Assembly: GCA_964348895.1 (NCBI GenBank)
Contig: CAYGEH010000001.1
Coordinates: forward strand, 453,586 to 517,585
DNA: 64,000 bases
Direction: 5' to 3'
Source: an uncultured Gammaproteobacteria bacterium
Lineage (GTDB): Bacteria > Patescibacteriota > Microgenomatia > 0-14-0-10-38-17
Shown: positions 12,840 through 40,150 of the stretch, one piece after another
How the letters are laid out: each line of letters starts with the position of its first letter
How positions within the stretch are numbered: position 1 is the first letter of the stretch
The notes under the pieces: model-generated
Seen by the model: the letters and a program-made list of their open reading frames with translations, nothing else
Told to the model about the DNA's origin: nothing
The model's database searches: none
Made by a program: the position numbers and the translations under genes

Positions 12840-13874
12840 GTGAGCAAAAAAATATCAAACATTATCAAAAGACTATCGCCTCCACGGATAGGGATTGACC
12901 TTGGAACTGCCAACTCTTTGGTTTATTTAGAAGGAAGGGGAGTGGTTCTTAATGAGCCAACGGTCGTGGCTGTTGCCTTTGACGAAAACAGGGTGGTGGC
13001 AGTTGGCCAAAGGGCAAAAAAAATGCTCGGTCGGACCCCAGAAAATATTGTCGCTTCAAGACCGCTTAGAGAAGGGGTAATTGCCAATTATAGAATTACA
13101 GAAGCAATGATTCGTTATTTTATTCGCCAGGCGTTGGGTCCCCACCTCTTAAAACCAGAAGTAATGATTTGTATTCCGGCTGGAGCAACTCAAGTAGAAA
13201 GGAGGGCCGTTATGGAAGCCACTCTTCAGGCTGGGGCTAGGGTGGTTTATTTAATTGATGAACCCTTAGCTGCTGCCATTGGGGCCCAGATGCCAATTGC
13301 CGAAGCCTCTGGGAATATGATTGTTGACATTGGGGGAGGCTCAACAGAAATCGCCGTTATTGCTTTAGGAGGAGTAGTTGCCCATGATTCGCTTCGGGTG
13401 GGGGGGGATAAGATTGATGAAGCAATTATTTCTTTTTTAAGAAGAAACTATAATTTAATGATTGGCGACCAAACTGCCGAGGAAGTAAAATTTAATATCG
13501 GATCGGCAGTTAAGCTTAAAAAAGAAGTCAAGATGGAAATCAAGGGCAGAGACTCTCTGTTGGGACTACCTCGGTCAATTGAGCTTAACAGCACTCAAAT
13601 AAACGAAGCGATTAGTCCTGTTCTCGACCAGATAGTTGGAGCGGTTAAGGGTGTTTTGGAGGGAACTCCGCCAGAGCTAGTCCGAGACATTATCGACAAA
13701 GGAATTGTTTTATCTGGGGGAACAAGTCTGTTGAACAACCTGGATCGACTAATGACGGAAGAAATTGGCGTTCCGTGTTTTGTTGCCCCTGACCCCATCC
13801 TTTGTGTCGTTAAGGGAACAGGCGTTGCAATTGAAAATATTGATCTTTATAAGCGGGCAGTTAGAAGGCAGTAG
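12840..13874 (+). CDS. mreB: Rod-shape-determining actin homolog MreB (paralog 1, solitary)
   Basis: 'GIDLGTANSLVY', 'DIGGGSTEIAVI' and 'LSGGTSLL' actin-fold motifs. GTG start preceded by an extended -10 TGcTATAAT at 12802-12810. Confidence 0.85.
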   Translation: MSKKISNIIKRLSPPRIGIDLGTANSLVYLEGRGVVLNEPTVVAVAFDENRVVAVGQRAKKMLGRTPENIVASRPLREGVIANYRITEAMIRYFIRQALGPHLLKPEVMICIPAGATQVERRAVMEATLQAGARVVYLIDEPLAAAIGAQMPIAEASGNMIVDIGGGSTEIAVIALGGVVAHDSLRVGGDKIDEAIISFLRRNYNLMIGDQTAEEVKFNIGSAVKLKKEVKMEIKGRDSLLGLPRSIELNSTQINEAISPVLDQIVGAVKGVLEGTPPELVRDIIDKGIVLSGGTSLLNNLDRLMTEEIGVPCFVAPDPILCVVKGTGVAIENIDLYKRAVRRQ

Positions 13875-23770: not shown

Positions 23771-23844
23771 TGGTGGACCCGAGGGGAATTGAACCCCTAC
23801 TTTCGCTATGCCATAGCGATGTTCTACCATTAGACTACGGGCCC
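23771..23844 (-). tRNA. tRNA-Ala (anticodon GGC), CCA encoded
   Basis: Acceptor GGGCCCG/CGGGUCC with the G3:U70 alanine identity pair; anticodon stem UCGCU/AGCGA with loop AUGGCAU; T-arm AGGGG-UUCAAUU-CCCCU; 3' ACCA encoded. Confidence 0.85.
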
Positions 23845-23936
23845 CTAACAAGCTCTATTTTATTAGAGGAAGGTGTTTTTGGCAAGAAAGTAGGCTTTTG
23901 TGCTAAAATTAGCCCTGTTAGTTAGGCCTAAATTGG

Positions 23937-24010
23937 GCCACCTTAGCTCAGTTGGTTAGAGCAACTGTTTTGTAAACAGTAGGTCCTCGGTTCAAATCCG
24001 AGAGGTGGCT
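23937..24010 (+). tRNA. tRNA-Thr (anticodon UGU)
   Basis: Acceptor GCCACCU/AGGUGGC; D-arm GCUC-AGUUGGUUA-GAGC; anticodon stem ACUGU/ACAGU with loop UUUGUAA; T-arm CUCGG-UUCAAAU-CCGAG. Confidence 0.85.
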
Positions 24011-24023
24011 CTTGAACTCTTTT

Positions 24024-24095
24024 GCCGATGTGGCTCAGTGGCAGAGCACGTCTTTGGTAAAGACGGGGTCATGGGTTCGATTCCCATCATCGGCT
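24024..24095 (+). tRNA. tRNA-Thr (anticodon GGU)
   Basis: Acceptor GCCGAUG/CAUCGGC; anticodon stem CGUCU/AGACG with loop UUGGUAA; T-arm AUGGG-UUCGAUU-CCCAU. Confidence 0.85.
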
Positions 24096-24327
24096 CTAGT
24101 TATTTAAATGTAACAGCAGAGGAAAGATTATTTAAAAAAATTAAGAAATTTAAAACAGATTAGCCTTATTTATTTTTATTTTCTTTGTCTGCTGATTGAA
24201 AGTTGGTTTGTTTTTAGGAAAATTGTAAGATTAACATCTTTTGAGTACTCTAATTACTCTTTAAAATTAGCCGACACTTCGGTTATAAACCTCAATTTTC
24301 TTCTTTTAGAAGCGAATTTTATTTGTT

Positions 24328-24389: not shown

Positions 24390-24569
24390 ATGGAAGAATT
24401 AAAAACAACCCTTTATACTGTTTCTGAGGCGGCTAAGATTTTGCGTTTCTCTCCAGTAACCCTATATCGCTGGATTGCTCAGGGGAAAATAAAGGTAGCA
24501 AAGCTTGGAACCAGAAGCTATAGAATTAAAAAAAGACATCTGGAAGAGCTGATGGAAAATAAAAAGTAA
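24390..24569 (+). CDS. Small excisionase/AlpA-family HTH DNA-binding protein (59 aa, below the ORF-track cutoff)
   Basis: Hand translation: MEELKTTLYTVSEAAKILRFSPVTLYRWIAQGKIKVAKLGTRSYRIKKRHLEELMENKK. HTH_17-type pattern 'LxTVxEAAxxLxxSxxTLYRWIxxGKI', good RBS, and a stop 5 nt before the giant-gene ATG. Confidence 0.6.
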   Translation: MEELKTTLYTVSEAAKILRFSPVTLYRWIAQGKIKVAKLGTRSYRIKKRHLEELMENKK

Positions 24570-24574
24570 AAGAC

Positions 24575-27394
24575 ATGCTCTGCCCAAAAAACTTCAACAA
24601 TGTAGTTTTAAAAATAAAAAAGCTATTGTCTGGGAACAGGAGCATTTTATTGAAAATAAAACCACAAACAAAGAAAAGAAAAAGAAGCTGTCTAGAGAAC
24701 AAGGGAAGCCTTAAAAAGATATCCTTGATTTTTTCGATTAAGACCTTTAAAAAGAAAAGTTTTACTAGAAAAAAAGTTGATTGCTTTTTTTTACGTGCCC
24801 ACGAGGTCTTTGATCTACTTGGGCGACATTTTGTTATTAAACATAAAACACTAAGACATTCCTCTTGTAATCGCAGAAACAACACTGTTTATAGAAACTT
24901 AAAAAAAAGAAACAACTGGCTGTTTAGTCTTAAAGAAAAAACCCTAAAGGGTTTAAAAATATTTTTGTTGACAACAAAGAATGTTTTTAAAAAATTATTT
25001 CACCTCGCTGTCAACAAGAGTAAGTCTTTATACTATTATATAAAAGAGGGGCGCTTTCGAGAAATTACTCCAGCTTTTGTAGCACACTCGGTACGACGAC
25101 ACTTGCCACTTTTTTTAGCTGTCTTGTTTATTACGCCTGCGGCGATTTTTTTGGGAATTTTTATTTATTCTAGATTAAACCAGCCACCTGCTTATGCGAC
25201 CCCTTTTACTGGTGCAATCAAGATTTCTCGGCAGTCTACTACTCTGTCTACCGACGGTGACTGGCTTACTTCGTTGGCACATTCAGGAGATGGGGTGACT
25301 GGTGACGCCGAGTCAGGAACCTTTAATCCAATTCATCCAGGTGGAACCTCAGATGGCACAGCAGGATCGGGCTTGGCGATTGGCTATATGACGGCTGGGG
25401 CGACAACCTATGCCACTACTGAGTTTATTGGTTTTAGGCCTAGTGCCAACGGAAACTTGACTGGCATAATGCTAGTTTTAGAGAACACCCTGTCTGCTTC
25501 TCGATCGGATGTGGACATAGTGGTTGAATTATTACGTTTTCCTTCAGCCGTTTGCACCACTACTTGCTCTAACTATGTGACTGGCTCTTTAAACTCTTTT
25601 ACCTTTCCAGCAGATACAGAGGTTTTAAGAAGAACTGTCTGGCAGTTTAATCAAGGTTTGTCGGGGGAAAACATGGCACCAGGAAACTTTGGTAGAGCAA
25701 CTTTTGATTTCCGTTTTGATTCGCCGGTAGCAGTAAACACTAGTAGTCATTATGGAATTAGGATTATTAACATGGGGTCAGGAGCACCAGTGTTTGGTGC
25801 GTGGGCAGCCAATGCCCCTTTTGCCAATTTTCCTATAATTAATGGTGCTTTTCGTACAATTGGGGTAAAAAGTATTGACAACGTCAATGCACCAACAGTT
25901 AACATGCCATTGGCTTTGTCTGGTAATAGCGTGATTATTTTAGGAACTTCACCTACACAAAGCTCTGGTATGGTAGCCGGAAATTCACTTGCTGGCGTGG
26001 GCTTGCCGACAATTAGAAGAACGGAGAACGAACATTGGACAGCAACCTATTCTTTAACCAATAACAACTGGACAATTGGGGGTTCAGTTTCTGGAGTTCA
26101 AAACAGAAGATTAACTACAGCGACGACTGGTGGTACAGGGCCGTCTTGGGTTAATGATGGAGTGGCAATAACACCACTGGCTGTTGACTCGGCCGCCTCT
26201 AATCGACTCTGTGTTACTTCAAGCGCTGGTTTTGCTGTTAATCAAACCATTGATCTTTGGGATTCGGACACAGCCACGCTGGGATACACTATTGCCTCAG
26301 TTAATGCTTCAGATGGTAGTTGTCCAGGAAATGGGCCATCAATTATTACCACCGCTGCGACCGTTGTTGGTTACACTGTTAATAAAAATGCCACTGTGGC
26401 CCAGGCGGTTTGGAAACAAAGAATTATCCAGGGGGCGGAAACAGCCTTTTCTCAAAACATGCCAACAACTAGCAAAATCTGTGTAGTTGACGCCTCGCAG
26501 TTTTCTGTTCGGCAGGGGGCAGCAGCTAATTTAGCTATTTGGGACAATAATTCGGTTATTTTGGCAACCAACGCCATTACTGCCATTACCGTTGATGATA
26601 TAGCCTGTGTTAATCCAACTCACGATGGCTTAACCTTAGCCTCTACGATTACCGCCGGAACCTATACAATTGACCAAAACGCTAGAGTAGCAGAAATTTC
26701 TACAACGCTTTCTAATATCGGAACGCCAGCTAATAATGCAACTATGCGCTGGACAACCTTTAATCATACCCAAAACCCAACCGCTTCTCCTCATCTTGCC
26801 AGAACCAGCTCGGTGATGATTGGTTTAGCAAAAAACTTGGCACCGGCCCAATCGGGCGTCAATTACCCCTTTCTTTCTAACAATCATATATTTTTTACAG
26901 CCTACGGCGACGCCAATACCCTGGCTCCAGCCGACGGCGACATTGTTGTTGTGGGAAATGGCAGGCCCGATCCAGACAGTGCTGATTCTCCGAATTTAAT
27001 AGATGATTTAAATTGGTCAGGGAAACAGGAACATGTGATTACTATTGATCGACATTGGAGTGCACCCCTGGTTTATACTGGTTCGTATGGCAGTGCAGTT
27101 TTAGATGGTGCCGGCGCTAGGGCTGATTTTTCCGCTTATTCGCAAAACGCAGGCTGGATTTCGGCGGTGATTGCTCCGAGTTCGCAGTTGCTTTTTGGCA
27201 ATGCCCTAACACTCATTATCGGATTACCATTCCCGGAAAAATTGTTATTGACTCTGATGCCTCTTTGGCTTTTGGGAAACAAGGAGCGGCTATTCCCGAC
27301 TCTTCATTTCAAAACATTTATTTTGACAACGTCAGCCCGGCGGTTTCCACCACGCTTACTACCAACTCTGACACTGGTACGGTGCTTACCGTAA
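24575..27394 (+). CDS. Giant surface protein, N-terminal ORF (frame A). The real reading leaves this frame at ~27.21 kb; sequence after that is out-of-frame read-through
   Basis: Only one in-frame ATG (24575), followed by a ~170-aa K/R-rich stretch over AT-rich DNA, so the true start is uncertain. A TM anchor 'LPLFLAVLFITPAAIFLGIFIY' lies at about 25.10-25.17 kb. T/S/G/A/N-rich ectodomain with repeated 'IWDNNSV...GYTIDQNA' modules that recur in the next ORF. Confidence 0.6.
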   Translation: MLCPKNFNNVVLKIKKLLSGNRSILLKIKPQTKKRKRSCLENKGSLKKISLIFSIKTFKKKSFTRKKVDCFFLRAHEVFDLLGRHFVIKHKTLRHSSCNRRNNTVYRNLKKRNNWLFSLKEKTLKGLKIFLLTTKNVFKKLFHLAVNKSKSLYYYIKEGRFREITPAFVAHSVRRHLPLFLAVLFITPAAIFLGIFIYSRLNQPPAYATPFTGAIKISRQSTTLSTDGDWLTSLAHSGDGVTGDAESGTFNPIHPGGTSDGTAGSGLAIGYMTAGATTYATTEFIGFRPSANGNLTGIMLVLENTLSASRSDVDIVVELLRFPSAVCTTTCSNYVTGSLNSFTFPADTEVLRRTVWQFNQGLSGENMAPGNFGRATFDFRFDSPVAVNTSSHYGIRIINMGSGAPVFGAWAANAPFANFPIINGAFRTIGVKSIDNVNAPTVNMPLALSGNSVIILGTSPTQSSGMVAGNSLAGVGLPTIRRTENEHWTATYSLTNNNWTIGGSVSGVQNRRLTTATTGGTGPSWVNDGVAITPLAVDSAASNRLCVTSSAGFAVNQTIDLWDSDTATLGYTIASVNASDGSCPGNGPSIITTAATVVGYTVNKNATVAQAVWKQRIIQGAETAFSQNMPTTSKICVVDASQFSVRQGAAANLAIWDNNSVILATNAITAITVDDIACVNPTHDGLTLASTITAGTYTIDQNARVAEISTTLSNIGTPANNATMRWTTFNHTQNPTASPHLARTSSVMIGLAKNLAPAQSGVNYPFLSNNHIFFTAYGDANTLAPADGDIVVVGNGRPDPDSADSPNLIDDLNWSGKQEHVITIDRHWSAPLVYTGSYGSAVLDGAGARADFSAYSQNAGWISAVIAPSSQLLFGNALTLIIGLPFPEKLLLTLMPLWLLGNKERLFPTLHFKTFILTTSARRFPPRLLPTLTLVRCLP
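27127..27394 (+). other. -1 frameshift junction between the two ORFs of the giant gene
   Basis: Frame B (codons at position 1 mod 3) opens after a TGA at 27124-27126. Frame A (2 mod 3) runs to a TAA at 27392-27394. Protein-like composition switches from A ('...APSSQLLFGNALT') to B ('HYRITIPGKIVIDSDASLAFGKQGAAIPDSS...') near 27205-27215. Local landmarks are a T5 run at 27192-27196 and, in frame A, the heptamer G_GGA_AAC at 27274-27280, whose -1 slip enters frame B. Confidence 0.6.
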
Positions 27395-30300
27395 CTTCCA
27401 CCTCTGGTTTTAATGTCGGCGATACCATTGTTATTCGCGATAACAACTCGGTAGCGATAACTAGATTGGTTGCTGCGATTGAAAATGCTACCCAGATTAG
27501 GGTAACAGCCGCGTTGGTTGCTGGCTATACGATAGATCAGAGTGCTTTTGTTGCCAAGGGCCCAACCACAGAATTACCTACTGGTGCTGATCGTCGAGCC
27601 GGAGTTTATACTATGACCGGCTTAATTGGAACAACACAAACCAACTTTCGGGTTGGTCGAGTAAGCTTGTATGGTCAGGGTTCAGATAGTTTTAGGACAA
27701 TGAAAAGTAATTTAGCAGTTGATGTTGAGGGTGATATTAATACTGGTTTCTTGGGAAACAATCTAACTGACTCTGGTAACACTTGGGTTGATGTTAAAGA
27801 CAATGTGGTGGGGAATTGGCAACCCCTAGATAGCATTGCTGTAGGTGGTGCCACTAATCAACTAGCGGACAACGAATTTTCTTCGATGAGAATGGGGGGA
27901 ACAGATGATGCTAACCAAATGCCAGTTTGGACTGGTCTTTTAACTGCTGGAGGCAGAAACGCCCTGCCAACCCCCAACATGGAGGTGGCAGAAATTGGAA
28001 CAATTCCCCTAACCGATATTTATAATAGTAATTTTAATGCTGGTTCGTCACTTTTTTCTTCTAATTACAACAATTCTAGTGTCTGGACGATTTTTGGCGA
28101 TGGTGCTAATAACGAAGTTAGCGATATGGTTTATTTTGGTGATCGGGGAAACAACATGTTTTATTCTTTAGAATTTAATCTTGGTATAACCATGGTGGCC
28201 AACGCTTCTTATGTTTGGGAATTTTGGAACGGAAGCGCTTGGCAAGGATTTACTCCTCGAGATGCTTATAGATATGAACCAAGAACGGACTACTGCATGC
28301 CACTTTCTGCTAATACAATTAGAAATTCTTTTACTCTGACTGTTCCCGAAGGTGGCACAAATTTTGGCTTAGATCAAATTGTGGCTATTAGCGACAATGA
28401 TTCGCCGAGAATTTTTCGAAGATTGGGAACTAGCGCTCCTTCTTCCACCACTTTGACTTTTTCTGAACCCCTGCCGGCTGGTTATGACACTGCTCAAGGT
28501 GCTCGAGTTTGTCGTTTAAGTGGCGGTCGCTGGATCGCCTTTGATCCAGCGAATATTTTTACAGCCAACACTGGTCGAAGAATTTTGAGTTGGACGCCAT
28601 CAAATTTGGGTAACGCGCCAGCTAGAACAACAGTTAATGGTGTGAACGCTTTTTGGGTAAGAGCGAGAATATCTACCCTTACTTCTTGGGAAGTCAATCC
28701 GGCTAATCAAACCACTCCAGTTAGCATGAGTGGATTAGAAAGAATTTCTTCTGGAGCTATTACGATGAGCTCTGGAGTACAAGAAGCTAAAATTACCGAA
28801 ATCACCCCTGGTTCGCTTTATAATCCCAACGAACAGTGGACCCTGGAATATGGCAATTCACCGGGATGGATAGAAACTATTCGTGGGGCTGCGGTTGGAC
28901 CACTTTCAGCCCCCTACCTTCATCGTGTTTCTGGAGGAGTTCTTAATTTTAGTCCTACCAACGTTCAAAACTGGTCAGTTCACAATAGCAATGTCCCTTT
29001 GGGCACAACAGACTATACAATGAGTGCTTTGGTTAGAATGGATATGCCAGCAGACGCCACTAGTCGTCGCTTAGGGCTTTTAATGCGTCAAAGCCTAGAC
29101 GGTGATGGCTATGCTGCTTTAATTACAAAAACTGCTTCTGTTAACACCGTTCAGTGGTGGACAACGTTAGCTGGTGTTCCCACCGCCATTGGTTCAGCAA
29201 CTTCTAAAACCTTTGATGTTGACACTTGGTATTGTTTAAAGGCAGAGGTTATCGGAACAACATTAAGAGCTAAATTTTGGGCAACAACGGATTGTGCTGT
29301 TGGAGAGCCAGGACCCTGGGATGTAACCGTTATCAATACTACTTATACTAATGGTCGAATTGGCCTTTATACTGGTTCGGCGACAGCCTCTCAGGGGGCA
29401 AGGGCAATGTTTGATCAGGTTTCTGTTATTGGCGGGGCTAATTTTTCTGATAACTTTAGTGATACTCAAACTTGGAGGGTAGAGGGTTCTATCCAGGGTT
29501 TAATTGGTGCAGCCACTCCGGGGACACCGTTTGCCAGCAATTTTATTAATTTTACTATAAAACATAGGGGCGGCTGGAATGGAGTGGTCAGCCCAGAAAT
29601 TGGCGATAAGATTTATTTAACTTCAACCGCTATTCGTAGTTATAGAGGACTAGATCCTTCGGTGCCGATTGTCACCAATAACAATAACACTAAATATGAG
29701 GTTTGGGATTTTGAATGGACTGGTTCGGCTTATGCGGTTACAGGGAGTGCTTCTGGCGCAGCAGGGACAGCTATCCCAGGCTTGACTTACACTGCTCCCA
29801 ACAATCAAATTTCTTTAAGAATAAACCCAGGAGCCCCCACGGCAACAAGGTTTGGCAACAGAATGCTTTTATTACAAGACAACCTTTTGCGCAGCAATGG
29901 CTCTTGGACTGGAGTAAATGGGATAGGAAGTGCGGCCTTGTTTTACCCTAGTTATACTTTAACAGGCAGTCCGGTTGCTACCCGCTACAACATTGAGGGA
30001 CAGAGTGGTACAGCCAATGCTCGACAACGAGGCACGATTGATTTTTGGTTTAAAACTAACTACGAGGGTAGCCCTTCTTCTGTAACTAATTCAGAAGGAA
30101 TGTATTTAATTGATTATGCTAATCAGGGTAACACTGACCGCCTGTTTGTTAGACACACCTCCGAAGGCTTTTTAGAAGCATCAATTTGGGCAGGTGCCAC
30201 TCAGGGACCGATTTTACGACAAAGCTTTTCTGCTGAGGCTGGTCGCTGGTATCATTTTCGCTTAGTGTGGTCCGAAGACGCCACTCCAACAATCCACAGA

Positions 30301-33300
30301 AGAGCTTGGCTTGATGGAACACCCTTTTCTATAAACCAAGGAAGCTCTCTTGCGGCGCGTGGTATTAATGCAGGGTTAATAAGAATAGGCAATAACTGGA
30401 CTTATAATGCGGCTTTTGATGGCGCCATTGACGAATTGGCTATTTTTGATGAAGATCTTGACACTTCTGGCGCTTGTAACTGGGGATCGTTTACTGTTCC
30501 TGCTTCGCCCTGGCTTGGGGCTGAAACCATTGGCTGTGCTGCCGACAGAAGCGGAATTAATATTTTTCGGGCTAGTTTTGATTCTGCCATGAACCCGCAG
30601 GAAGGGTTTATTTGGGCCGACTATGCATATGGGAACCCAGCTGTGATTTTTACCAATGGTGCAGATACAGGAAACGAGAGATTTAGAATAATTACTTATC
30701 CCGAAAGAACCCGTGTTTGGATAGATAATACTGGTGAAAAGTATACGCCTTCAGCCAGAATTAAATATGGTTCTGGTCATCTTGAAAACAATGCCCTGAC
30801 AACATTAGCTGGCTGGTCTCATAATTTTACTTTCCACCACAAGGCGGCCCGTGATTCAGAAACTAATCCGACTCATTCGCCAGTTTTAAATTTGAGGCGT
30901 AGTATTCATATTTGGTCTGAGGAAAACTTTACTTATACTGGGGCTACGACTGGTGCGCCGATCAATTCTGGTTTAGGTTTTGGTTTAACCGCAGTCGGTC
31001 TTTCTGGTTTGGCCAACATGAACATTAGCCATTTGTCGATGGAGAATCAGTTTAGTAATTTTTCCATTATGACGAACCCCTTTACTTCGATCAGACCATT
31101 TCCCAGCCAAGTTATATCTAAATCAGTTTTTTACAATTACTTTGATCGGGCTTACACGGTTTCTGCCAAAACCCAGGGTTCTAATTATGTTGGTGCCTAT
31201 TTTGTGACGACTAACTTTGCTGCAGCCAACATTGGTACAGGTTATAATGCTTCCGCCTCGCAAAACGTTGGCATTGATGGGAGTATTTTTATGGGTCACC
31301 GAAACAGTTTTGTCACTGTGCCCCCAGCAGCGGCAAATGGTGCGGCAGCGTTTTTCTCTGGCCGTCTTTACACTATTCGTAATAGCGAATTTCATAATAA
31401 TGGTATTTCTGGTTCAGGCACCACAGGGGCACTGAACTTCAGTGCTGGTGTAGCGAAATTGACCATTGAAAATAACATTTTTTCTATCAATACCAATGGA
31501 GTTCGGCTTTATGGTAATTCTTTTGTTGATCTTGCCAATAATGTCTTTGACGGTCATGTTTCTGACGATGTAATCACTGTTGCTGGTGGATATGGTTCTG
31601 GTATCCGTTCCGCCCAATCTTTCTCCTCGGTGTTTGTTAGAGACACTGGGAGTGTTTTGGGTCGAGGATTATGGAATGAGGCTGATATTAATTTACCTCC
31701 TAATACCGCCACTTTTGAGGCAGAATCAATGTTGCAGTTTATTGGTGAGGGCACATCTTTGTTTAGTCCGATTTTGTTTGGAACAGTGGATTATTTGAAT
31801 ATGGGACGAGTGCCAGAAGAATATTTTCACACGACAATTCCAGGAACAGAGATTCGGCTTGGTTCTGGCAAAGATATTGTTAATTTGACGACTTTCGGCA
31901 ACATGCGCACCACTGGCGGAGGCTTATCGGACACAACTGTTCGCACAAGTGGTGGTTATGCTTGGCGACTAGACCCTCGAAGTTCTGATGTTGCCCTAGA
32001 TTATACCGCTAAAGTAGTAGGCGTAGCTGGAAAGCCCCTGGCTGTTACTGGCTATTTACGAATTAACGAGGACTATGGATCTTCTGGTTTACCAACAGTA
32101 ACGCTTTCTGGATTGGGAATGGCAGGGCCAAATTTGACTTGGACGGCCCAAGCTTCTTCTAATGTTTGGCAGCAATTTGTGGTTTCTGGTACGCCAACAG
32201 AATCAGCCCTAGCCGAAGTGAAAATAAGCGTTAGTCTCGAGGGTGTGGTGGTGGCCGATTCTGGTACAAGTCAAATTATTGCTAATCCGATAGGTAATTA
32301 TTTGCCAGCCTTAGTTGAAGATGTTAATAAATCTTGGAGACCAAACCAGTGGGTTGGATTTTTAATGAGAGACAGCAACGGTAAGATTTTTGAAATTGTT
32401 AGAAACACCGGTCAGCTTTTGTATGTGAAGGGGATTGTAGCACCACACCTTTTAAGTACTACTTTTACTGCGGCAACTCCGGGAGACTATATTATTTTTC
32501 GTCAACCAATGGTTTATTTAGACGATGTTTCAGTTTTGTCTGGAACGGTTGACACAGGCACCCTAGACTTACATATTGCTGGTCAACCGGTTTCACCTTG
32601 GCTTGCGACTGGTCTGACTGCCGAATCAGTTTGGAGTGCTCAATATGGTGTTTTTGCTGATATTACTGGCTCTTTTGGTCAACTTATGCAAGATGCCCTG
32701 GTTGCTCGGTATGCCAATGTGCTTGATCCCTCGCCAACCACAATTTCTTTTAACACCAACTTAACGGCCTCTGCTGATGATTTTTATAATGAAGGAGTAA
32801 TTATATTCACTGAAGGTCAAAACAGGGGAGTGGTAAGGCGCATTTCTGCTTACGGTGGTGCCAGTAAAACCATTACCATTGCTCCGCCTCTTCCTTTTGC
32901 TCCGAAAAATGGGGACAGATTTGCCGTTTTGGCCGCAACTAGCTTTTCGGCCGGTGGTACTGGTGGGGCCAGTGCGGCGGAAATTTGGAACTATGCTGTT
33001 AGATCTCTAACGGACGCCACCCTAAACTCTGGCAGTTTAGCAACGAGTTTTGACATAGCAGCGATTCAATCTAGTCTAACTACAATTTTGTCCCAAACCA
33101 ATAACATTGTGGCAATAAAAACAAAAACAGACACGATTAATTGGGCCGACATAATCGGACTTATAACTACCACAGGTCAAATTAGGGCCAAGACCGACAC
33201 AATAAATTGGAGCGACATTTCCGCTGTTAAAACCAGAACTGACACAATAAACTGGAACGATGTTACTGGTATCAAATTAAACACAGACACAATTGTTTGG

Positions 33301-36300
33301 GGAGATATTACAGCAATCAGAAATAATGTTGCCACTCTAATTAGCGAAATAGGTGTTGGCAATATTGCAGCAATCAGAACCAAAGCCGAGACCATTTCTT
33401 GGGGAGATATTACTGGGCTAGTAACGACATCAGGGCAAATTAAAGAGAAAACTGACACCATTAATTGGGCAAATGTGGTAGCAATAAAAACAAAAACAGA
33501 CACGATCGCTTGGGATGATGTTACTGGTATTAAGGTTAAGACAGACACGATCGCTTGGGGCGATATTGGTGTTTTACAATCTTCAATAAATTCTTTAAAT
33601 AATATTTCTGCCACTGACATTTGGGCTTATGCGACAAGAACCATAACTGGCGAAGTGGTGCTAACCGCGGATTCAAGACGAGCTATTTGGGACACAGCCT
33701 GTGCCATTCTGAATACCTCTGGTAGTGTTGGAAAACAAGTTTGTGACAATCTTGACACAACTATTTCTTCTCGCTCAACTTTAACCGCGGCCCAAGTTTG
33801 GGCTGAGGCAACCAGAACTATCACTGCCCTAGAAAGCCCAGCCCTAGCTGCAATTGCTAACAATGTTTGGAGTAACGCCACAAGAGCTCTGACTTATTAT
33901 GGCAACGATATAACAGCCCAGCAGGTTTGGAGTGTTTTGACTTCTTCTTTAACAACGATTGACTCTATTGGTAAGCTTTTGGTAACCAATGTTGACGAGA
34001 CGATCTCTTCTCGTTCCAGCCAGGAAAGCTTGGATGTTTTATCAGAAAATGTTGCAACCACCTCTGCTTTAATTGATGCTCCAATATCTTCTCGAGCCGC
34101 TCAGTCGAGCTTGGACGACCATGAAGCGGCAGAGTCAGCTTTTAGAACTCAAACGACCAATACCTTAGGATCAATGACCATTAATATTGCCGCTATCTTG
34201 ACCCAGCTTTCAAATATTGAAACTAAAATTAATACAATTCAATCAACTTTAGCCGTTATGGACGGCAAGTTAAACATTATTGACGCCAATGTAACTAGCG
34301 TCAAAACAACGATTGAAGACACTAATATTAAGGTTACGGCGATGCAAACGGTAACCAACAATATTTTAGCTAAGTGGGGAAGCTATAACGCAACAACGAT
34401 TCTTGGCTATGTTGATGCTTTAGAGGCCAACTTGGGGGATCCCAATGACCCAACGTCTTCGGCCACGGTTTTTGGCAAACTTAATTATCTTAAACAAAGT
34501 GGTGCTGGTGGCGGCGCTGGTGGCGGTGGCGGCGGCATGATCGATTTAGTTTATGCTCAAGCCCAGTCAACCCACACTAAACTTTTAGAGGTTCAAACAG
34601 AGCTTGGATTCAATGGTAAATCCACAAACGCCTATGATGAAATGATTGCTGTTAAGGGTTATGTTAATGAGATTGAACTATCCTTGTCGACACTAGATTT
34701 AAATACTTCCGCAATTACCGCTTCTGTTACTAATGTTTCTAACGACCTAAGAGCTGTTACTAATAAAATTGGCAAGGTTAATGTTGACTCTCTCGCCCCT
34801 CTTTTTGAGGTGCAAAGAATGGACATTGACTATTTGAAAACTAAAATGGTTGAACTAAAAACAGTTGCGGACATTAATCGTCAGCTTTTGGAAAAAACAG
34901 TTAATCAGCCGATTGTTAAGGTGATTATGGAATGGGGGTCGGTAATTATTAAGTTTGTCATCGTTAACCCTTCGGACTCAGTTACCCAAACAATTCCGTT
35001 TAAGGCCTTTTTACCCAAAGAAGTCAGACAAGAGTACATTATAGACCTTGGTGGGTTGATGCTCAACTATGATGCGACAACAGAACAGTATTATGTAACA
35101 GCAGAAATTACTCTAGAAAAGGGCGAATCAGTTATTAGAAGTGTGAAAATTAAAGACATTTGGGTTATTTCTGAAGATGAAATTGCCTCTTTGCGTCAAC
35201 AGGCGGAAGATCTATATGAAGGATTAAAAAAGACCCCCTATAGCGCTCAGGCCTTGATTTTAAGAACTGATATTAACACCAGATTGGACAGAGTCGTTAG
35301 AAAACAGAAAGATGGCAGATCTACTCCACAGGAGCATATTTTGGCTTATCGAGAAAACGCTGAAGATATGAAAGCAATTAATGAAAACATTAAGGGTCTT
35401 AAGGATTTGGTTTTAACCTCTGGGGTTGGGAGTAACTTTTTGGCCTCAATTGGTGGTATTCAAACATTTGCGACATGGGGTATTGTTTTAGTTTTAATTT
35501 TTGGTATGGGAACTTTAGGAATGTTTTATTATCAATTGTGGCGAAGAAAGGTAGTTACTGTGAGTAGCGAAACTAGAAAAAAAACAAAAAAAATAGAAAT
35601 ATCAACACCATCGCCATTTATGCTTCCTGGATTTGACTTAGCTTGGTTGAAAAAAATTCTTTTCGGTTGGTTAATTTTAATAAGAGATATTTTTGCCAAT
35701 TTGATTCGACTGATCAAGCTCTTTAATTTTCAAACAAAATCAACGACCACCAAAGCAAAAATAACACAGAAAACACTAATTGTTTTTTTAATGATGGGGG
35801 GAACTGTGGTTGCAATTATCAGCGGAATAGTGGTAACGCGAAACTTTTTGAAAAAAAATCAAGACCAGAACACAGAGACAAGGGTGACGACTTCGATGCC
35901 TAATTCAACCTTAGTTGCCACCAGAGAGGAAAGAGTCGAAGTCCTAGTTGCGGAAATGATCGAAAGGGCAACTGAAAAAAAAGAAACCCACGAAAGGATT
36001 GAGGAGCTGACAAAAGAGTCAGAAGAGGAAGGAGTTTTGAGGGCTACTTTTGAATATCAACAATTACTGGTAATTAAGCAAACACCGAACGGTTGGGTTG
36101 ATGTTCGACAAGAACCCTCTTTGTCAGCAGAAATAATTACCAAGGTTTATCCTGGGGAAAGTTATCCTTTCTCTGAAACAGAAGGAGAATGGTATAAGAT
36201 ACTACTCAAAGACTTGACTGAGGGATGGATTCCGGCCAAGTTTGTAAAACCGGAAGAGAAAATAACAAATGCTGTTGGCGATATCTTTGTGGAAATTATT

Positions 36301-36486
36301 CCTCCGGAAGGAGGCGGAGTTAATATTCGCCAGTCGGCTGATAAGGAAAGCAAAATTATTAAGACTGTTTATGTCAAGAACAAATATCTCAAGCTGGGAG
36401 AAGAGGGTGATTGGATAAAAATTGAGCTATTAGGTGGAAAGGCAGGCTTTGTTTTTAAAGAATTTATTCAAACGATAAGCGAATAA
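27265..36486 (+). CDS. Giant surface protein, main ORF (frame B, 3,073 aa from an in-frame TTG; the frame is open from 27127). Contains lectin-like jelly-roll domains, a parallel beta-helix, tandem repeats, coiled-coil-like sequence, poly-Gly, TM helices and two SH3b domains
   Basis: DUF1080/ConA-like region at about 28.9-29.4 kb ('YTMSALVRMD...GYAALI...DTWYCLKAEVIGTTLRAKFW...GRIGLYTG'). LamG-like region at about 29.97-30.45 kb ('GTIDFWFKT...RWYHFRLVW...FDGAIDELAIFDEDL'). Parallel beta-helix at about 31.37-31.68 kb ('LTIENNIFSINTNGVRLYGNSFVDLANNVFDG'). A 15-aa repeat array at 33.11-33.58 kb, poly-Gly at 34498-34536, TM helices at ~35.45 kb and ~35.8 kb, and two SH3b-like domains at 36.08-36.47 kb. 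Confidence 0.7.
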   Translation: MAFGKQGAAIPDSSFQNIYFDNVSPAVSTTLTTNSDTGTVLTVTSTSGFNVGDTIVIRDNNSVAITRLVAAIENATQIRVTAALVAGYTIDQSAFVAKGPTTELPTGADRRAGVYTMTGLIGTTQTNFRVGRVSLYGQGSDSFRTMKSNLAVDVEGDINTGFLGNNLTDSGNTWVDVKDNVVGNWQPLDSIAVGGATNQLADNEFSSMRMGGTDDANQMPVWTGLLTAGGRNALPTPNMEVAEIGTIPLTDIYNSNFNAGSSLFSSNYNNSSVWTIFGDGANNEVSDMVYFGDRGNNMFYSLEFNLGITMVANASYVWEFWNGSAWQGFTPRDAYRYEPRTDYCMPLSANTIRNSFTLTVPEGGTNFGLDQIVAISDNDSPRIFRRLGTSAPSSTTLTFSEPLPAGYDTAQGARVCRLSGGRWIAFDPANIFTANTGRRILSWTPSNLGNAPARTTVNGVNAFWVRARISTLTSWEVNPANQTTPVSMSGLERISSGAITMSSGVQEAKITEITPGSLYNPNEQWTLEYGNSPGWIETIRGAAVGPLSAPYLHRVSGGVLNFSPTNVQNWSVHNSNVPLGTTDYTMSALVRMDMPADATSRRLGLLMRQSLDGDGYAALITKTASVNTVQWWTTLAGVPTAIGSATSKTFDVDTWYCLKAEVIGTTLRAKFWATTDCAVGEPGPWDVTVINTTYTNGRIGLYTGSATASQGARAMFDQVSVIGGANFSDNFSDTQTWRVEGSIQGLIGAATPGTPFASNFINFTIKHRGGWNGVVSPEIGDKIYLTSTAIRSYRGLDPSVPIVTNNNNTKYEVWDFEWTGSAYAVTGSASGAAGTAIPGLTYTAPNNQISLRINPGAPTATRFGNRMLLLQDNLLRSNGSWTGVNGIGSAALFYPSYTLTGSPVATRYNIEGQSGTANARQRGTIDFWFKTNYEGSPSSVTNSEGMYLIDYANQGNTDRLFVRHTSEGFLEASIWAGATQGPILRQSFSAEAGRWYHFRLVWSEDATPTIHRRAWLDGTPFSINQGSSLAARGINAGLIRIGNNWTYNAAFDGAIDELAIFDEDLDTSGACNWGSFTVPASPWLGAETIGCAADRSGINIFRASFDSAMNPQEGFIWADYAYGNPAVIFTNGADTGNERFRIITYPERTRVWIDNTGEKYTPSARIKYGSGHLENNALTTLAGWSHNFTFHHKAARDSETNPTHSPVLNLRRSIHIWSEENFTYTGATTGAPINSGLGFGLTAVGLSGLANMNISHLSMENQFSNFSIMTNPFTSIRPFPSQVISKSVFYNYFDRAYTVSAKTQGSNYVGAYFVTTNFAAANIGTGYNASASQNVGIDGSIFMGHRNSFVTVPPAAANGAAAFFSGRLYTIRNSEFHNNGISGSGTTGALNFSAGVAKLTIENNIFSINTNGVRLYGNSFVDLANNVFDGHVSDDVITVAGGYGSGIRSAQSFSSVFVRDTGSVLGRGLWNEADINLPPNTATFEAESMLQFIGEGTSLFSPILFGTVDYLNMGRVPEEYFHTTIPGTEIRLGSGKDIVNLTTFGNMRTTGGGLSDTTVRTSGGYAWRLDPRSSDVALDYTAKVVGVAGKPLAVTGYLRINEDYGSSGLPTVTLSGLGMAGPNLTWTAQASSNVWQQFVVSGTPTESALAEVKISVSLEGVVVADSGTSQIIANPIGNYLPALVEDVNKSWRPNQWVGFLMRDSNGKIFEIVRNTGQLLYVKGIVAPHLLSTTFTAATPGDYIIFRQPMVYLDDVSVLSGTVDTGTLDLHIAGQPVSPWLATGLTAESVWSAQYGVFADITGSFGQLMQDALVARYANVLDPSPTTISFNTNLTASADDFYNEGVIIFTEGQNRGVVRRISAYGGASKTITIAPPLPFAPKNGDRFAVLAATSFSAGGTGGASAAEIWNYAVRSLTDATLNSGSLATSFDIAAIQSSLTTILSQTNNIVAIKTKTDTINWADIIGLITTTGQIRAKTDTINWSDISAVKTRTDTINWNDVTGIKLNTDTIVWGDITAIRNNVATLISEIGVGNIAAIRTKAETISWGDITGLVTTSGQIKEKTDTINWANVVAIKTKTDTIAWDDVTGIKVKTDTIAWGDIGVLQSSINSLNNISATDIWAYATRTITGEVVLTADSRRAIWDTACAILNTSGSVGKQVCDNLDTTISSRSTLTAAQVWAEATRTITALESPALAAIANNVWSNATRALTYYGNDITAQQVWSVLTSSLTTIDSIGKLLVTNVDETISSRSSQESLDVLSENVATTSALIDAPISSRAAQSSLDDHEAAESAFRTQTTNTLGSMTINIAAILTQLSNIETKINTIQSTLAVMDGKLNIIDANVTSVKTTIEDTNIKVTAMQTVTNNILAKWGSYNATTILGYVDALEANLGDPNDPTSSATVFGKLNYLKQSGAGGGAGGGGGGMIDLVYAQAQSTHTKLLEVQTELGFNGKSTNAYDEMIAVKGYVNEIELSLSTLDLNTSAITASVTNVSNDLRAVTNKIGKVNVDSLAPLFEVQRMDIDYLKTKMVELKTVADINRQLLEKTVNQPIVKVIMEWGSVIIKFVIVNPSDSVTQTIPFKAFLPKEVRQEYIIDLGGLMLNYDATTEQYYVTAEITLEKGESVIRSVKIKDIWVISEDEIASLRQQAEDLYEGLKKTPYSAQALILRTDINTRLDRVVRKQKDGRSTPQEHILAYRENAEDMKAINENIKGLKDLVLTSGVGSNFLASIGGIQTFATWGIVLVLIFGMGTLGMFYYQLWRRKVVTVSSETRKKTKKIEISTPSPFMLPGFDLAWLKKILFGWLILIRDIFANLIRLIKLFNFQTKSTTTKAKITQKTLIVFLMMGGTVVAIISGIVVTRNFLKKNQDQNTETRVTTSMPNSTLVATREERVEVLVAEMIERATEKKETHERIEELTKESEEEGVLRATFEYQQLLVIKQTPNGWVDVRQEPSLSAEIITKVYPGESYPFSETEGEWYKILLKDLTEGWIPAKFVKPEEKITNAVGDIFVEIIPPEGGGVNIRQSADKESKIIKTVYVKNKYLKLGEEGDWIKIELLGGKAGFVFKEFIQTISE
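33112..33580 (+). repeat. In-frame tandem repeat array (about 9 copies of a ~45-nt / 15-aa unit 'KTDTINWxDVTGIKx', with occasional longer spacers)
   Basis: 'gcaataaaaacaaaaacagacacgat' recurs at 33112 and 33481, and 'acagacacgatcgcttgggg' at 33497 and 33541. Protein: KTDTINWADI.../KTDTINWSDISAVKT/RTDTINWNDVTGIKL/NTDTIVWGDITAIR.../KTDTINWANVVAIKT/KTDTIAWDDVTGIKV/KTDTIAWGDIGVL. Confidence 0.8.
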
Positions 36487-36980
36487 ACAACCTGGTTATA
36501 TAAGAAATGAACAAACATCGCCAAAAAGGTTGCTGGAAAGACTAACTGCTGGTTTTGTCGACTAGGCAGAAAAATAATTAATCCTGTTAAGGCATGTAGG
36601 GTTGTAGTCAAAATAAATCTTTGCCAAAAACTGTAAAGAATGCCGTCAGCAATGAAGTTTGTCAGATAAAACATGTTCTCAGAAAAAGCAAAGAGAAACA
36701 ACATCATTAATGTTATCTTTAATTGATTTTTTCTTGAGGAAAACTTGAGAATTTGTAAAATAAGGATTGCTTTAACAATTTCTTCAATTATAAAAAAATG
36801 AGAAACAACTCTTCCCAGAGGAATAAGAACAAGGGGTAGGACTAGAGCTATAAGGCAAACTAAAAAGAGAACTGACGATTCATGGTTTTCTTTCTCCATG
36901 AATTTAATATACCAAAAATAAACAAATAATTTTTCAAAATAAGCGTTTTGTTCGTCTTTGTTTTTTGTAATTATACTCAT
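36468..36980 (-). CDS. CPBP/PrsW-superfamily intramembrane metalloprotease-like membrane protein (CAAX-protease/Abi-like)
   Basis: 170 aa, 4-5 TM, with a motif-1-like 'IIEEIVKAIL', 'TTLHALTG' and 'FVHFLYNQ' (HxxxN). Convergent with the giant gene, overlapping its end by 19 nt. Confidence 0.4.
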   Translation of the reverse strand: MSIITKNKDEQNAYFEKLFVYFWYIKFMEKENHESSVLFLVCLIALVLPLVLIPLGRVVSHFFIIEEIVKAILILQILKFSSRKNQLKITLMMLFLFAFSENMFYLTNFIADGILYSFWQRFILTTTLHALTGLIIFLPSRQNQQLVFPATFLAMFVHFLYNQVVYSLIV

Positions 36981-39079: not shown

Positions 39080-40150
39080 GTGTTATACTATTTGTTAATG
39101 CTAACAACATGGAGACGTTTTTTTTCTAAAGTTTCTCCGGGGATTGCGATAGACCTGGGAACGGCCAATACTTTTGTGTACCAAAGAGGCCGGGGATTGG
39201 TTTTTCGAGAGCCGTCGGTGGTAGCCAGACAAAAAAAGTCTAAAAAAGTGCTGGCAATTGGTTCTAGGGCAAAAAAAATGATCGGCAAAACCCCAGAAGC
39301 AATTGAAGCTTTTTACCCGCTTCACAATGGGGTTATTGCTGATTTTGACGCTGCCCGAGCAATTTTGACTTATTTTTTAGATAAACTAGCTGAAACAAAC
39401 TCTTTTTGGGGTAAATTCTTAAAAGAAACCGTTATTATTGGAACTCCTTCTGGGTCAACGGAAGTAGAAAGAAAGGCAGTTTTTGATGCGGCCATTGAGG
39501 CTGGAGCGGGGAATTGTTTTTTAGTTGAAGAGCCGATGGCTGCTGCTATTGGGGCAGGGCTACCAGTTGACAGTCCCAGCGGAAGCTTAATTTGTGACAT
39601 TGGCGGAGGGACAACAGAAATTGCGGTTATTTCTTTAGGAGGAATAGTCTTGAATCGCTCTCTGAAGCTAGCTGGTCATAAAATGGATGAAGTAATTGTT
39701 AATTTTTTAAGATTAAAATATTCTCTTCTTGTCGGCTTATCAACGGCAGAAGAAATTAAAATGGAAATAGGCAGTGCCTTACCAGAAAAGAAAGAGCCAG
39801 AGATGGTTGTTCGGGGTAGAGGATTGGAAAAAGGTTTGCCAATTACTGTCAAGATTGCCGCTCCAGAGATAAGGGAGGCAATTGCTCCGATCTTGAATCA
39901 AATTATTCGTGCCGTTAACGAGATGATCGAAGAAGCACCCCCTGAATTGGTTAATGATTTTCTAGAGAGGGGAATAACCTTGTGTGGTGGTGGAGCAAAG
40001 CTGCCTGGAATTGATAGGCTTTTTTCTCAAGAAACTAAAATGCCGGTTTTTATTGCCGAAGACCCTCAGGCGGCAGTGGCCCTAGGGTGTGGGCGCTTAC
40101 TAGAAAACGTCGACTTGCGAGATCGAGTAAAAATTGTCGGTATTAGCTAG
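39080..40150 (+). CDS. mreB: Rod-shape-determining protein MreB (paralog 2, first gene of an mreBCD-PBP2 operon)
   Basis: 'GIAIDLGTANTFVY', 'DIGGGTTEIAVISL' and 'LCGGGAKL' motifs. The start is ambiguous: GTG at 39080 or ATG at 39098. Confidence 0.85.
   Translation: MLYYLLMLTTWRRFFSKVSPGIAIDLGTANTFVYQRGRGLVFREPSVVARQKKSKKVLAIGSRAKKMIGKTPEAIEAFYPLHNGVIADFDAARAILTYFLDKLAETNSFWGKFLKETVIIGTPSGSTEVERKAVFDAAIEAGAGNCFLVEEPMAAAIGAGLPVDSPSGSLICDIGGGTTEIAVISLGGIVLNRSLKLAGHKMDEVIVNFLRLKYSLLVGLSTAEEIKMEIGSALPEKKEPEMVVRGRGLEKGLPITVKIAAPEIREAIAPILNQIIRAVNEMIEEAPPELVNDFLERGITLCGGGAKLPGIDRLFSQETKMPVFIAEDPQAAVALGCGRLLENVDLRDRVKIVGIS

Follow-up and report, generated by a model that had tools for sequence, protein, structure and literature searches.

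Probable recent single-nucleotide deletion in a predicted giant surface-protein gene of a Saccharibacteria-like bacterium

A bacterial coding sequence that is divided between two overlapping reading frames can be compared with several kinds of described system: programmed −1 frameshifting, as in E. coli dnaX, the orfA/orfB pairs of the IS3 family, and phage lambda G/GT; the homopolymer contingency loci of Neisseria and Haemophilus; and giant surface-protein genes that have been split or pseudogenised by mutation. Slippery heptamers of the form XXA_AAC are weak in bacteria when they lack stimulators, and classical phase-variable tracts are at least 7–8 nt long. Here we analyze a 64-kb stretch of contig CAYGEH010000001.1 (referred to below as the window), in which two open reading frames (ORFs) on the forward strand, ORF A and ORF B, overlap in a −1 relation. 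A preliminary description of this DNA had proposed that the two ORFs belong to one giant gene interrupted by a 1-nt insertion or deletion (indel), which might be a pseudogenising change, a phase-variable change, or an assembly error, and had kept open the possibility of programmed frameshifting at a heptamer, G_GGA_AAC, within the overlap. We conclude that the giant gene has very probably been split by an ordinary, genuine, and recent 1-nt deletion at 27205/27206, and that the heptamer is a coincidence.

The deletion site and its intact relatives

Frame A (24575 + 3n) runs from ATG 24575 to TAA 27392–27394 and constitutes ORF A. Frame B, which lies one base behind frame A, has a stop codon at 27124–27126 and is then open from 27127 to 36486, and the two ORFs overlap from 27127 to 27394. 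These coordinates, the −1 overlap, a T5 run close to the junction, and the in-phase G_GGA_AAC are all as first described. A repeated module of ~60 aa is common to both ORFs (IWDNNSV...YTIDQNARVAE in ORF A and IRDNNSVA...GYTIDQSAFVAKG in ORF B), and the modules of the two ORFs give reciprocal tblastn cross-hits. The continuous coding sequence of ten relatives, which we describe below, bears out the proposal that ORF A and ORF B are one gene.

We collected two orthologs from a contig scan of one genome per species and seven more from a metagenome scan (55–63% amino-acid identity), which together make up L002–L010. In each of the nine, a single tblastn high-scoring segment pair in one frame extended across 520 residues centered on the junction, and the window alone was split. 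The ortholog on the complete chromosome of a Saccharibacteria metagenome-assembled genome (MAG), L003, is one ORF of 3,910 aa; its residues 45–795 align with window positions 24899–27205 in frame A, and its residues 797–3906 align with 27208–36468 in frame B. Codon alignments set the five nucleotides GCCCT of the window (27203–27207) against two codons in every ortholog, and restoration of one base gave a gap-free protein alignment (...PSSQLLFGNAPNTHYRITIPGKIV... versus ...PGSQLGIDNSANKHYRINIPGKIV...). A word-indexed protein search with the fused junction peptide was uninformative, as it returned a single fragment (P0001, from L001) that lies wholly downstream of the junction.

A much closer relative, L018, was retrieved by exact look-ups of the HTH_17 gene upstream of ORF A; it is a Logan contig of SRR34485632, an unrelated run. 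Pairwise blastn gave 96.3% identity between L018 and the window over 10.5 kb, and an ORF of 3,134 aa in L018 spans the junction site. At the junction, L018 reads GGT AAT GCT CCT AAT ACC CAT (G N A P N T H) and the window reads GGC AAT GC-CCT AAC ACT CAT. L018 is one base longer here, which places the loss of a base, at 27205/27206, in the window lineage; the missing base is the third position of an Ala codon. Only three gap events separate the two sequences (one at the junction, one at 25020, and one, a 3-nt in-frame indel, at 27632), and this comparison revealed no compensating indel near the junction. The preliminary description had suggested that orthologs be examined for a continuous frame, and all ten relatives (L002–L010 and L018) keep to one frame across the site. 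The position of the deletion falls within the interval originally proposed for the indel, 27205–27215. The fusion that had been proposed, '...GNALT|HYRI...', was two residues off, as the intact strain gives '...LLFGNA|PNTHYRITIPGK...'.

The pattern of substitution between the window and L018 is that of a gene read in frame B beyond the deletion. Within the ORF overlap, the ratio of nonsynonymous to synonymous substitution rates (dN/dS) was 0.14 in frame B and 0.99 in frame A, and downstream of the overlap it was 0.07–0.09. The 30 frame-B codons from 27208 to 27297 contain five synonymous and no nonsynonymous differences. We saw no downstream decay in the form of stops, further indels, or relaxed dN/dS: ORF B has no stop codon over 9.3 kb, and its dN/dS is 0.07–0.14. 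As ORF B lacks stops and frame B bears the mark of purifying selection, the deletion appears to be recent; either the lesion is young or the downstream part of the gene is still in use.

The divergence between the window and L018 rises locally at 27298–27630, where there are 18–25 mismatches per 100 nt. One copy of the repeated module (STSGFNVGDTIVIRDNNSVA...GYTIDQSAFVAKG) falls within this segment, whose dS is 0.84, against 0.06–0.22 elsewhere in the gene, with dN/dS staying at 0.12. The pattern resembles that left by recombination or gene conversion more than one of relaxed selection. An origin resembling the action of a diversity-generating retroelement was rejected, as the substitutions are not adenine-specific.

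In the mechanism that we propose, deletion of a single nucleotide at 27205/27206 would have converted GCN CCT into GCCCT, and translation would continue after Ala877 in a +1-displaced frame. The product of ORF A would then consist of 877 native residues, which include the anchor, and a nonsense tail of 62 aa (out-of-frame codons 27206–27391, beginning LIIGLPFPEKLLLTLMPLWLLGNKER), and the ~3,090 downstream codons, in ORF B, would be left with neither the native start nor the signal anchor. For ORF B, the earliest possible start is TTG 27265, and gene callers choose GTG 27382 (giving 3034 aa); neither is preceded by an AT-rich leader of the kind that other genes in the window have. An exact look-up of the ORF B product from TTG 27265 found no record, because callers use GTG 27382. 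With ORF B lacking a convincing start or anchor, this strain most likely carries an inactivated or severely hypomorphic gene, and ORF B presumably remains open and looks selected only because the mutation is young.

Most of the well-defined gene starts in the window have AT-rich leaders and no Shine-Dalgarno (SD) motif. Start prediction based on ribosome-binding sites is therefore unreliable in this genome, and choosing a start for ORF B by its SD motif was uninformative for the same reason.

Competing explanations for the two frames

The exact 939-aa product of ORF A, including its out-of-frame tail, is present on eight public contigs (NCBI, Logan, and ENA), the longest of which is 691 kb. 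Across the site, Logan contigs of runs ERR3094288, ERR3094290, and ERR3094291 and the ENA MEGAHIT assembly ERZ27247803 share 100% identity with the window, the contigs with the deletion allele being identical to it over 10–20 kb, and the called 3034-aa product of ORF B is also found in public records. The evidence for the allele consists of assembled contigs. If the deletion were a sequencing or assembly error, the true genome would read GCNCCT (six bases) and would contain an uninterrupted ORF of 3,970 codons. Such an error would fit the full integrity of ORF B and its selection signature, which resembles that of an intact gene; the indel site lies in a short C run (CCC, 27204–27206), the source is of MAG type (with 691 kb as its longest contig), and another orthologous locus, L002, is disrupted in a manner typical of assemblies, by a run of N and a G7 tract. 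Against this, the same deletion allele was assembled by Logan from three runs and by MEGAHIT, and recurrence of an identical 1-nt error in independent short-read assemblies is unlikely. Accurate short reads, which are implied by 40-kb k-mer-based contigs, do not produce systematic 1-nt deletions in a C3/C4 context. Moreover, the neighboring genes (M16 peptidase, NDK, MreB, WecG, L10, L7/L12, NusG, L11, and L1) appear to be intact and free of frameshifts, indicating that the assembly is not generally indel-prone. The T5 run, near which an assembly error had originally been suspected, was discarded as the error site, as it is unchanged in intact L018 (GCTTTTTGG). We therefore regard an error in the sequence as unlikely.

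Some observations do weigh against our conclusion that a genuine deletion has inactivated the gene. ERR3094288, ERR3094290, and ERR3094291 probably belong to a single study and may sample one clonal population, so that they would not represent independent biological occurrences of the allele. Because our inspection was of contigs, the same population may also harbor an intact allele as a minority. Finally, an intact ORF B is also predicted by continued expression of the downstream part, through re-initiation or low-level slippage, and the loss of function is our inference from the sequence.

Such expression could take the form of a fortuitous, leaky rescue, in which −1 slips within 27206–27391, most likely at G_GGA_AAC, restore frame B, or in which ribosomes re-initiate at GTG 27382. 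Slippage would yield a little full-length protein with a substituted patch of 23 residues (at the heptamer, the junction would read ...MPLWLLGN|KQGAAIPDSSFQ...) and would maintain some selection on the downstream part. ORF B is indeed intact, only the mutant allele places the heptamer in phase, and GTG 27382, the start picked by gene callers, precedes the ORF A stop by 10 nt, in an overlap that resembles those of translationally coupled genes. However, neither a fold computed without pseudoknots nor Rfam provided a stimulatory element, a protein rescued by slippage would miss a conserved segment, and a re-initiated ORF B would have no N-terminal signal anchor. The candidate starts of ORF B also lack AT-rich leaders, and a recent mutation accounts equally well for the intact ORF B. 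We consider rescue of this kind improbable, and there is correspondingly only a slender chance that the strain is not null and obtains some ORF B product from a slip at G_GGA_AAC or from re-initiation, coupled to termination of ORF A, at GTG 27382. If it did, an accidental slippery site would be buffering a fresh frameshift in a 12-kb gene and might be raw material for a new programmed frameshift.

Phase variation, in which a hypermutable tract would switch the giant surface protein on and off, was suggested in the preliminary description. Giant surface proteins are often subject to such switching, and at least one other ortholog (L009) has an apparent, independent frameshift elsewhere in the gene. 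However, the tract at the indel site is only C3 (C4 when the missing base is restored), and the intact relative reads GCTCCT, with no repeat. Tandem Repeats Finder detected no tandem arrays in 24500–36500. This explanation is hardly credible for the window.

The remaining explanation is the programmed frameshifting that had been entertained for G_GGA_AAC. The heptamer owes its phase with frame A (TTG|GGA|AAC) to the deletion; in the intact gene the same letters are the out-of-phase interior of TTT GGG AAA CAA (FGKQ). The heptamer sequence is identical in intact L018. The distant orthologs use GGG, GGT, GGA, or GGC for the Gly codon and do not keep the slippery pattern. The change of frame in the homology occurs 68 nt 5′ of the heptamer, and a slip at the heptamer would lose the 22 frame-B codons that lie between the deletion and the heptamer (NTHYRITIPGKIVIDSDASLAF) and are conserved in all orthologs. 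In the long ORFs of the window we counted 295 in-phase X_XXY_YYZ heptamers in 18,723 codons (~1.6 per 100 codons), which corresponds to a chance expectation of ~1.4 per 90-codon overlap, or ~1.1 if Y is limited to A or T. GGGAAAC occurs in phase four times in these ORFs, and a second in-phase heptamer, T_TTG_GGA, is present in the overlap at 27271.

A search for a downstream stimulatory structure, which had been proposed as a check, gave nothing significant: the 120 nt from 27281 to 27400, folded without pseudoknots, had a minimum free energy of −25.2 kcal/mol (z = −1.51; 12 of 200 shuffled sequences were as stable), and the first stem begins ~1 nt after the heptamer. Rfam gave no match at E ≤ 1, frameshift elements included, and the sequence has no SD-like motif 10–14 nt upstream of the heptamer. 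Two other slip sites were considered and rejected. Slippage exactly at the deletion (GCC|CTA) would place GCC on TGC and CTA on CCT, which by inspection allows no tRNA re-pairing, and an evolved slip at A_AAA (27238–27241) would still lose the conserved NTHYRITIPG segment. Evolved programmed −1 frameshifting at G_GGA_AAC, joining ORF A to ORF B, would draw on a canonical X_XXY_YYZ motif in phase with frame A, on the landing of a −1 slip in frame B, and on the small hairpin that can form directly downstream, but we assign it next to no probability, as the two-frame layout is found in none of the ten relatives (the 96%-identical strain included), purifying selection in frame B acts on the 22 codons upstream of the heptamer, the nucleotides of the heptamer are not conserved, chance would supply such a motif in an overlap of this length, and the downstream fold is unexceptional, abuts the heptamer, and matches no Rfam element.

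The giant protein and its genomic surroundings

The intact gene comprises ~3,970 codons and in all likelihood encodes a giant membrane-anchored surface protein of a Saccharibacteria-like bacterium of the candidate phyla radiation (CPR). The order of its parts is an N-terminal signal anchor (residues 175–201 of the fused protein), the ~60-aa repeats, a LamG domain, two C-terminal transmembrane segments, and SH3 domains (Table 1). Scans with Pfam, PHROGs, and NCBIfam found no curated family in the rest of the protein, and the PHROGs and NCBIfam scans gave only sub-threshold matches to baseplate- or tail-like families. In the C-terminal third, at 33000–33700 (...KTDTINWADIIG...KTDTIAWGDIG...), there are about ten imperfect copies of a motif of ~13–17 aa with the pattern K/R-T-D/E-T-I-x-W-x-D-I/V. 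The motif has no family match, Tandem Repeats Finder did not detect its copies at the DNA level, and the copies are followed by a long coiled-coil-like stretch rich in Ser, Thr, and Asn.

Table 1. Positions of the giant-gene fragments, the lesion, and associated features in the window
Feature	Coordinates	Strand	Remarks and basis
ORF A	24575..27394	+	N-terminal giant-gene fragment; native to 27205 (877 codons), then out-of-frame tail, TAA 27392–27394
Transmembrane/signal-anchor segment RHLPLFLAVLFITPAAIFLGIFIYSRL	25097..25177	+	Hydropathy scan; conserved ortholog N-termini; on ORF A fragment only
Frame B ORF	27127..36486	+	C-terminal ~3,090 codons of giant gene; conserved coding from 27205/27208
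T5 run	27192..27196	+	Identical (GCTTTTTGG) in intact L018; not the indel site
1-nt deletion site	27203..27207	+	GCCCT versus GCT CCT (Ala-Pro) in L018; blastn and ortholog codon alignment
22 frame-B codons NTHYRITIPGKIVIDSDASLAF	27208..27273	+	Between deletion and heptamer; conserved in all orthologs
G_GGA_AAC heptamer	27274..27280	+	In phase with frame A (TTG|GGA|AAC); probably coincidental
Laminin_G_3 (concanavalin-like) domain, in ORF B	30022..30459	+	Pfam PF13385, E = 2.3e-12
Two C-terminal hydrophobic (transmembrane) segments	35467..35841 (35467–35526; 35770–35841)	+	Hydropathy scan
C-terminal bacterial SH3_3 domain	36097..36249	+	Pfam PF08239, E = 8.5e-20; best of 2 matched stretches

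The position of the native start is less clear. Before the anchor, only ~15–30 residues can be aligned with orthologs. At the equivalent of window position 25020 (L018:1039), L018 is without one G (AAGA-TAAG versus AAGAGTAAG) in the K-rich region 5′ of the transmembrane anchor, and gene calling divides its gene into products of 155 aa and at least 3,134 aa, the second starting at the equivalent of TTG 25103. The sequences suggest that the true start of the giant gene is either ATG 24575 or a codon near 25103, and the coding status of 24575–25100 is in doubt.

Two of the orthologous loci have irregularities of their own. An in-frame stop in L002 was considered as an independent disruption and set aside as uninformative, as it coincides with a run of N (masked sequence or a scaffold gap), a duplicated flank, and a G7 tract; at L002:2043–2145 and 2224–2252, SNWTIVGS is found on both sides of the N run, together with the G7 tract. 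The L002 contig has a 'Bdellovibrionales' bin label and carries a Saccharibacteria-type giant gene, and it is probably mis-binned. L009 (contig Ga0228535_1000003, 841 kb) has an apparent frameshift of its own at 1940–2100, in another place in the giant gene. The homology is in frame 2 up to ~2035 (..AAQFIGFKP) and in frame 1 from ~2008 (KSDGNLAGVQLVFENL..), at window-equivalent residues ~290–299. The giant gene may have been disrupted here a second time, independently and in a different lineage, or the frameshift may be an artefact.

The window is part of a cellular genome with a GC content of ~38% that carries tRNAs and housekeeping genes, including those for ribosomal proteins L10, L7/L12, L11, and L1, NusG, MreB, and NDK, and the genomes nearest to it are Saccharibacteria MAGs. 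The giant gene has a GC content of 43–46% along most of its extent, 5–8 percentage points above its flanks. A 59-aa gene of the HTH_17 family (excisionase/MerR-like; 24390–24569, + strand) ends 5 nt 5′ of ORF A and comes just after a tRNA-Ala/Thr/Thr cluster (23771–24096). The tRNA cluster, the HTH_17 gene, and the raised GC content of the giant gene could hint at an island-like origin. We rejected a conserved partnership between the HTH_17 gene and the giant gene, as the HTH_17 gene is present only in the close strain L018 and was not found beside the distant orthologs in the available DNA of those loci. The window also contains two MreB/Mbl paralogues (12840–13874 and 39080–40150; Pfam E = 1e-134 and 4e-127, respectively), the second of which adjoins mreC and a gene for a PBP2-like transpeptidase.

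Comparison with known systems

If the gene has been split by a recent deletion, as we propose, the public annotation should be corrected: the ORFs of 939 aa and 3,034 aa are one disrupted giant gene rather than two genes, and their overlap is not a recoding site. An in-phase heptamer in a frameshift overlap carries no weight in this AT-rich genome unless it has comparative support. A strain of the epibiotic (CPR) type would appear to have lost the largest of its surface proteins a short time ago and is still found in several samples, which hints that the giant protein is dispensable or counter-selected under those conditions. The literature yielded nothing usable on giant-gene frameshifts in Saccharibacteria or on the run accessions.

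The locus shares the −1 overlap and an in-phase heptamer with programmed −1 frameshifting in E. coli dnaX (A_AAA_AAG), the IS3-family orfA/orfB genes, and phage lambda G/GT (G_GGA_AAG), and G_GGA_AAC is one base away from the lambda G/GT site. Unlike in those systems, the architecture is absent from relatives, the heptamer lies 68 nt past the frame switch, and the codons for FGK explain its presence. It also appears to differ from them in its lack of stimulators, as a fold computed without pseudoknots gave no hairpin at the proper spacing of ~5–9 nt, and the sequence has no upstream SD-like element. With the homopolymer contingency loci of Neisseria and Haemophilus it has in common a 1-nt change in length that shifts the frame of a surface-protein gene, but the tract here is 3–4 nt long and is absent from the intact relative.

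The closest resemblance is to giant surface-protein genes that have been split or pseudogenised. As in those cases, an uncompensated 1-nt deletion is seen by comparison with an intact relative, and the overlapping ORFs are called separately; like other disrupted genes of this class, the gene is very long and so presents a large mutational target. Unlike in old pseudogenes, secondary decay is absent (there are no stops, and dN/dS is low), consistent with a very young lesion. We read the finding as an ordinary frameshift mutation, still young, in a gene of great length.

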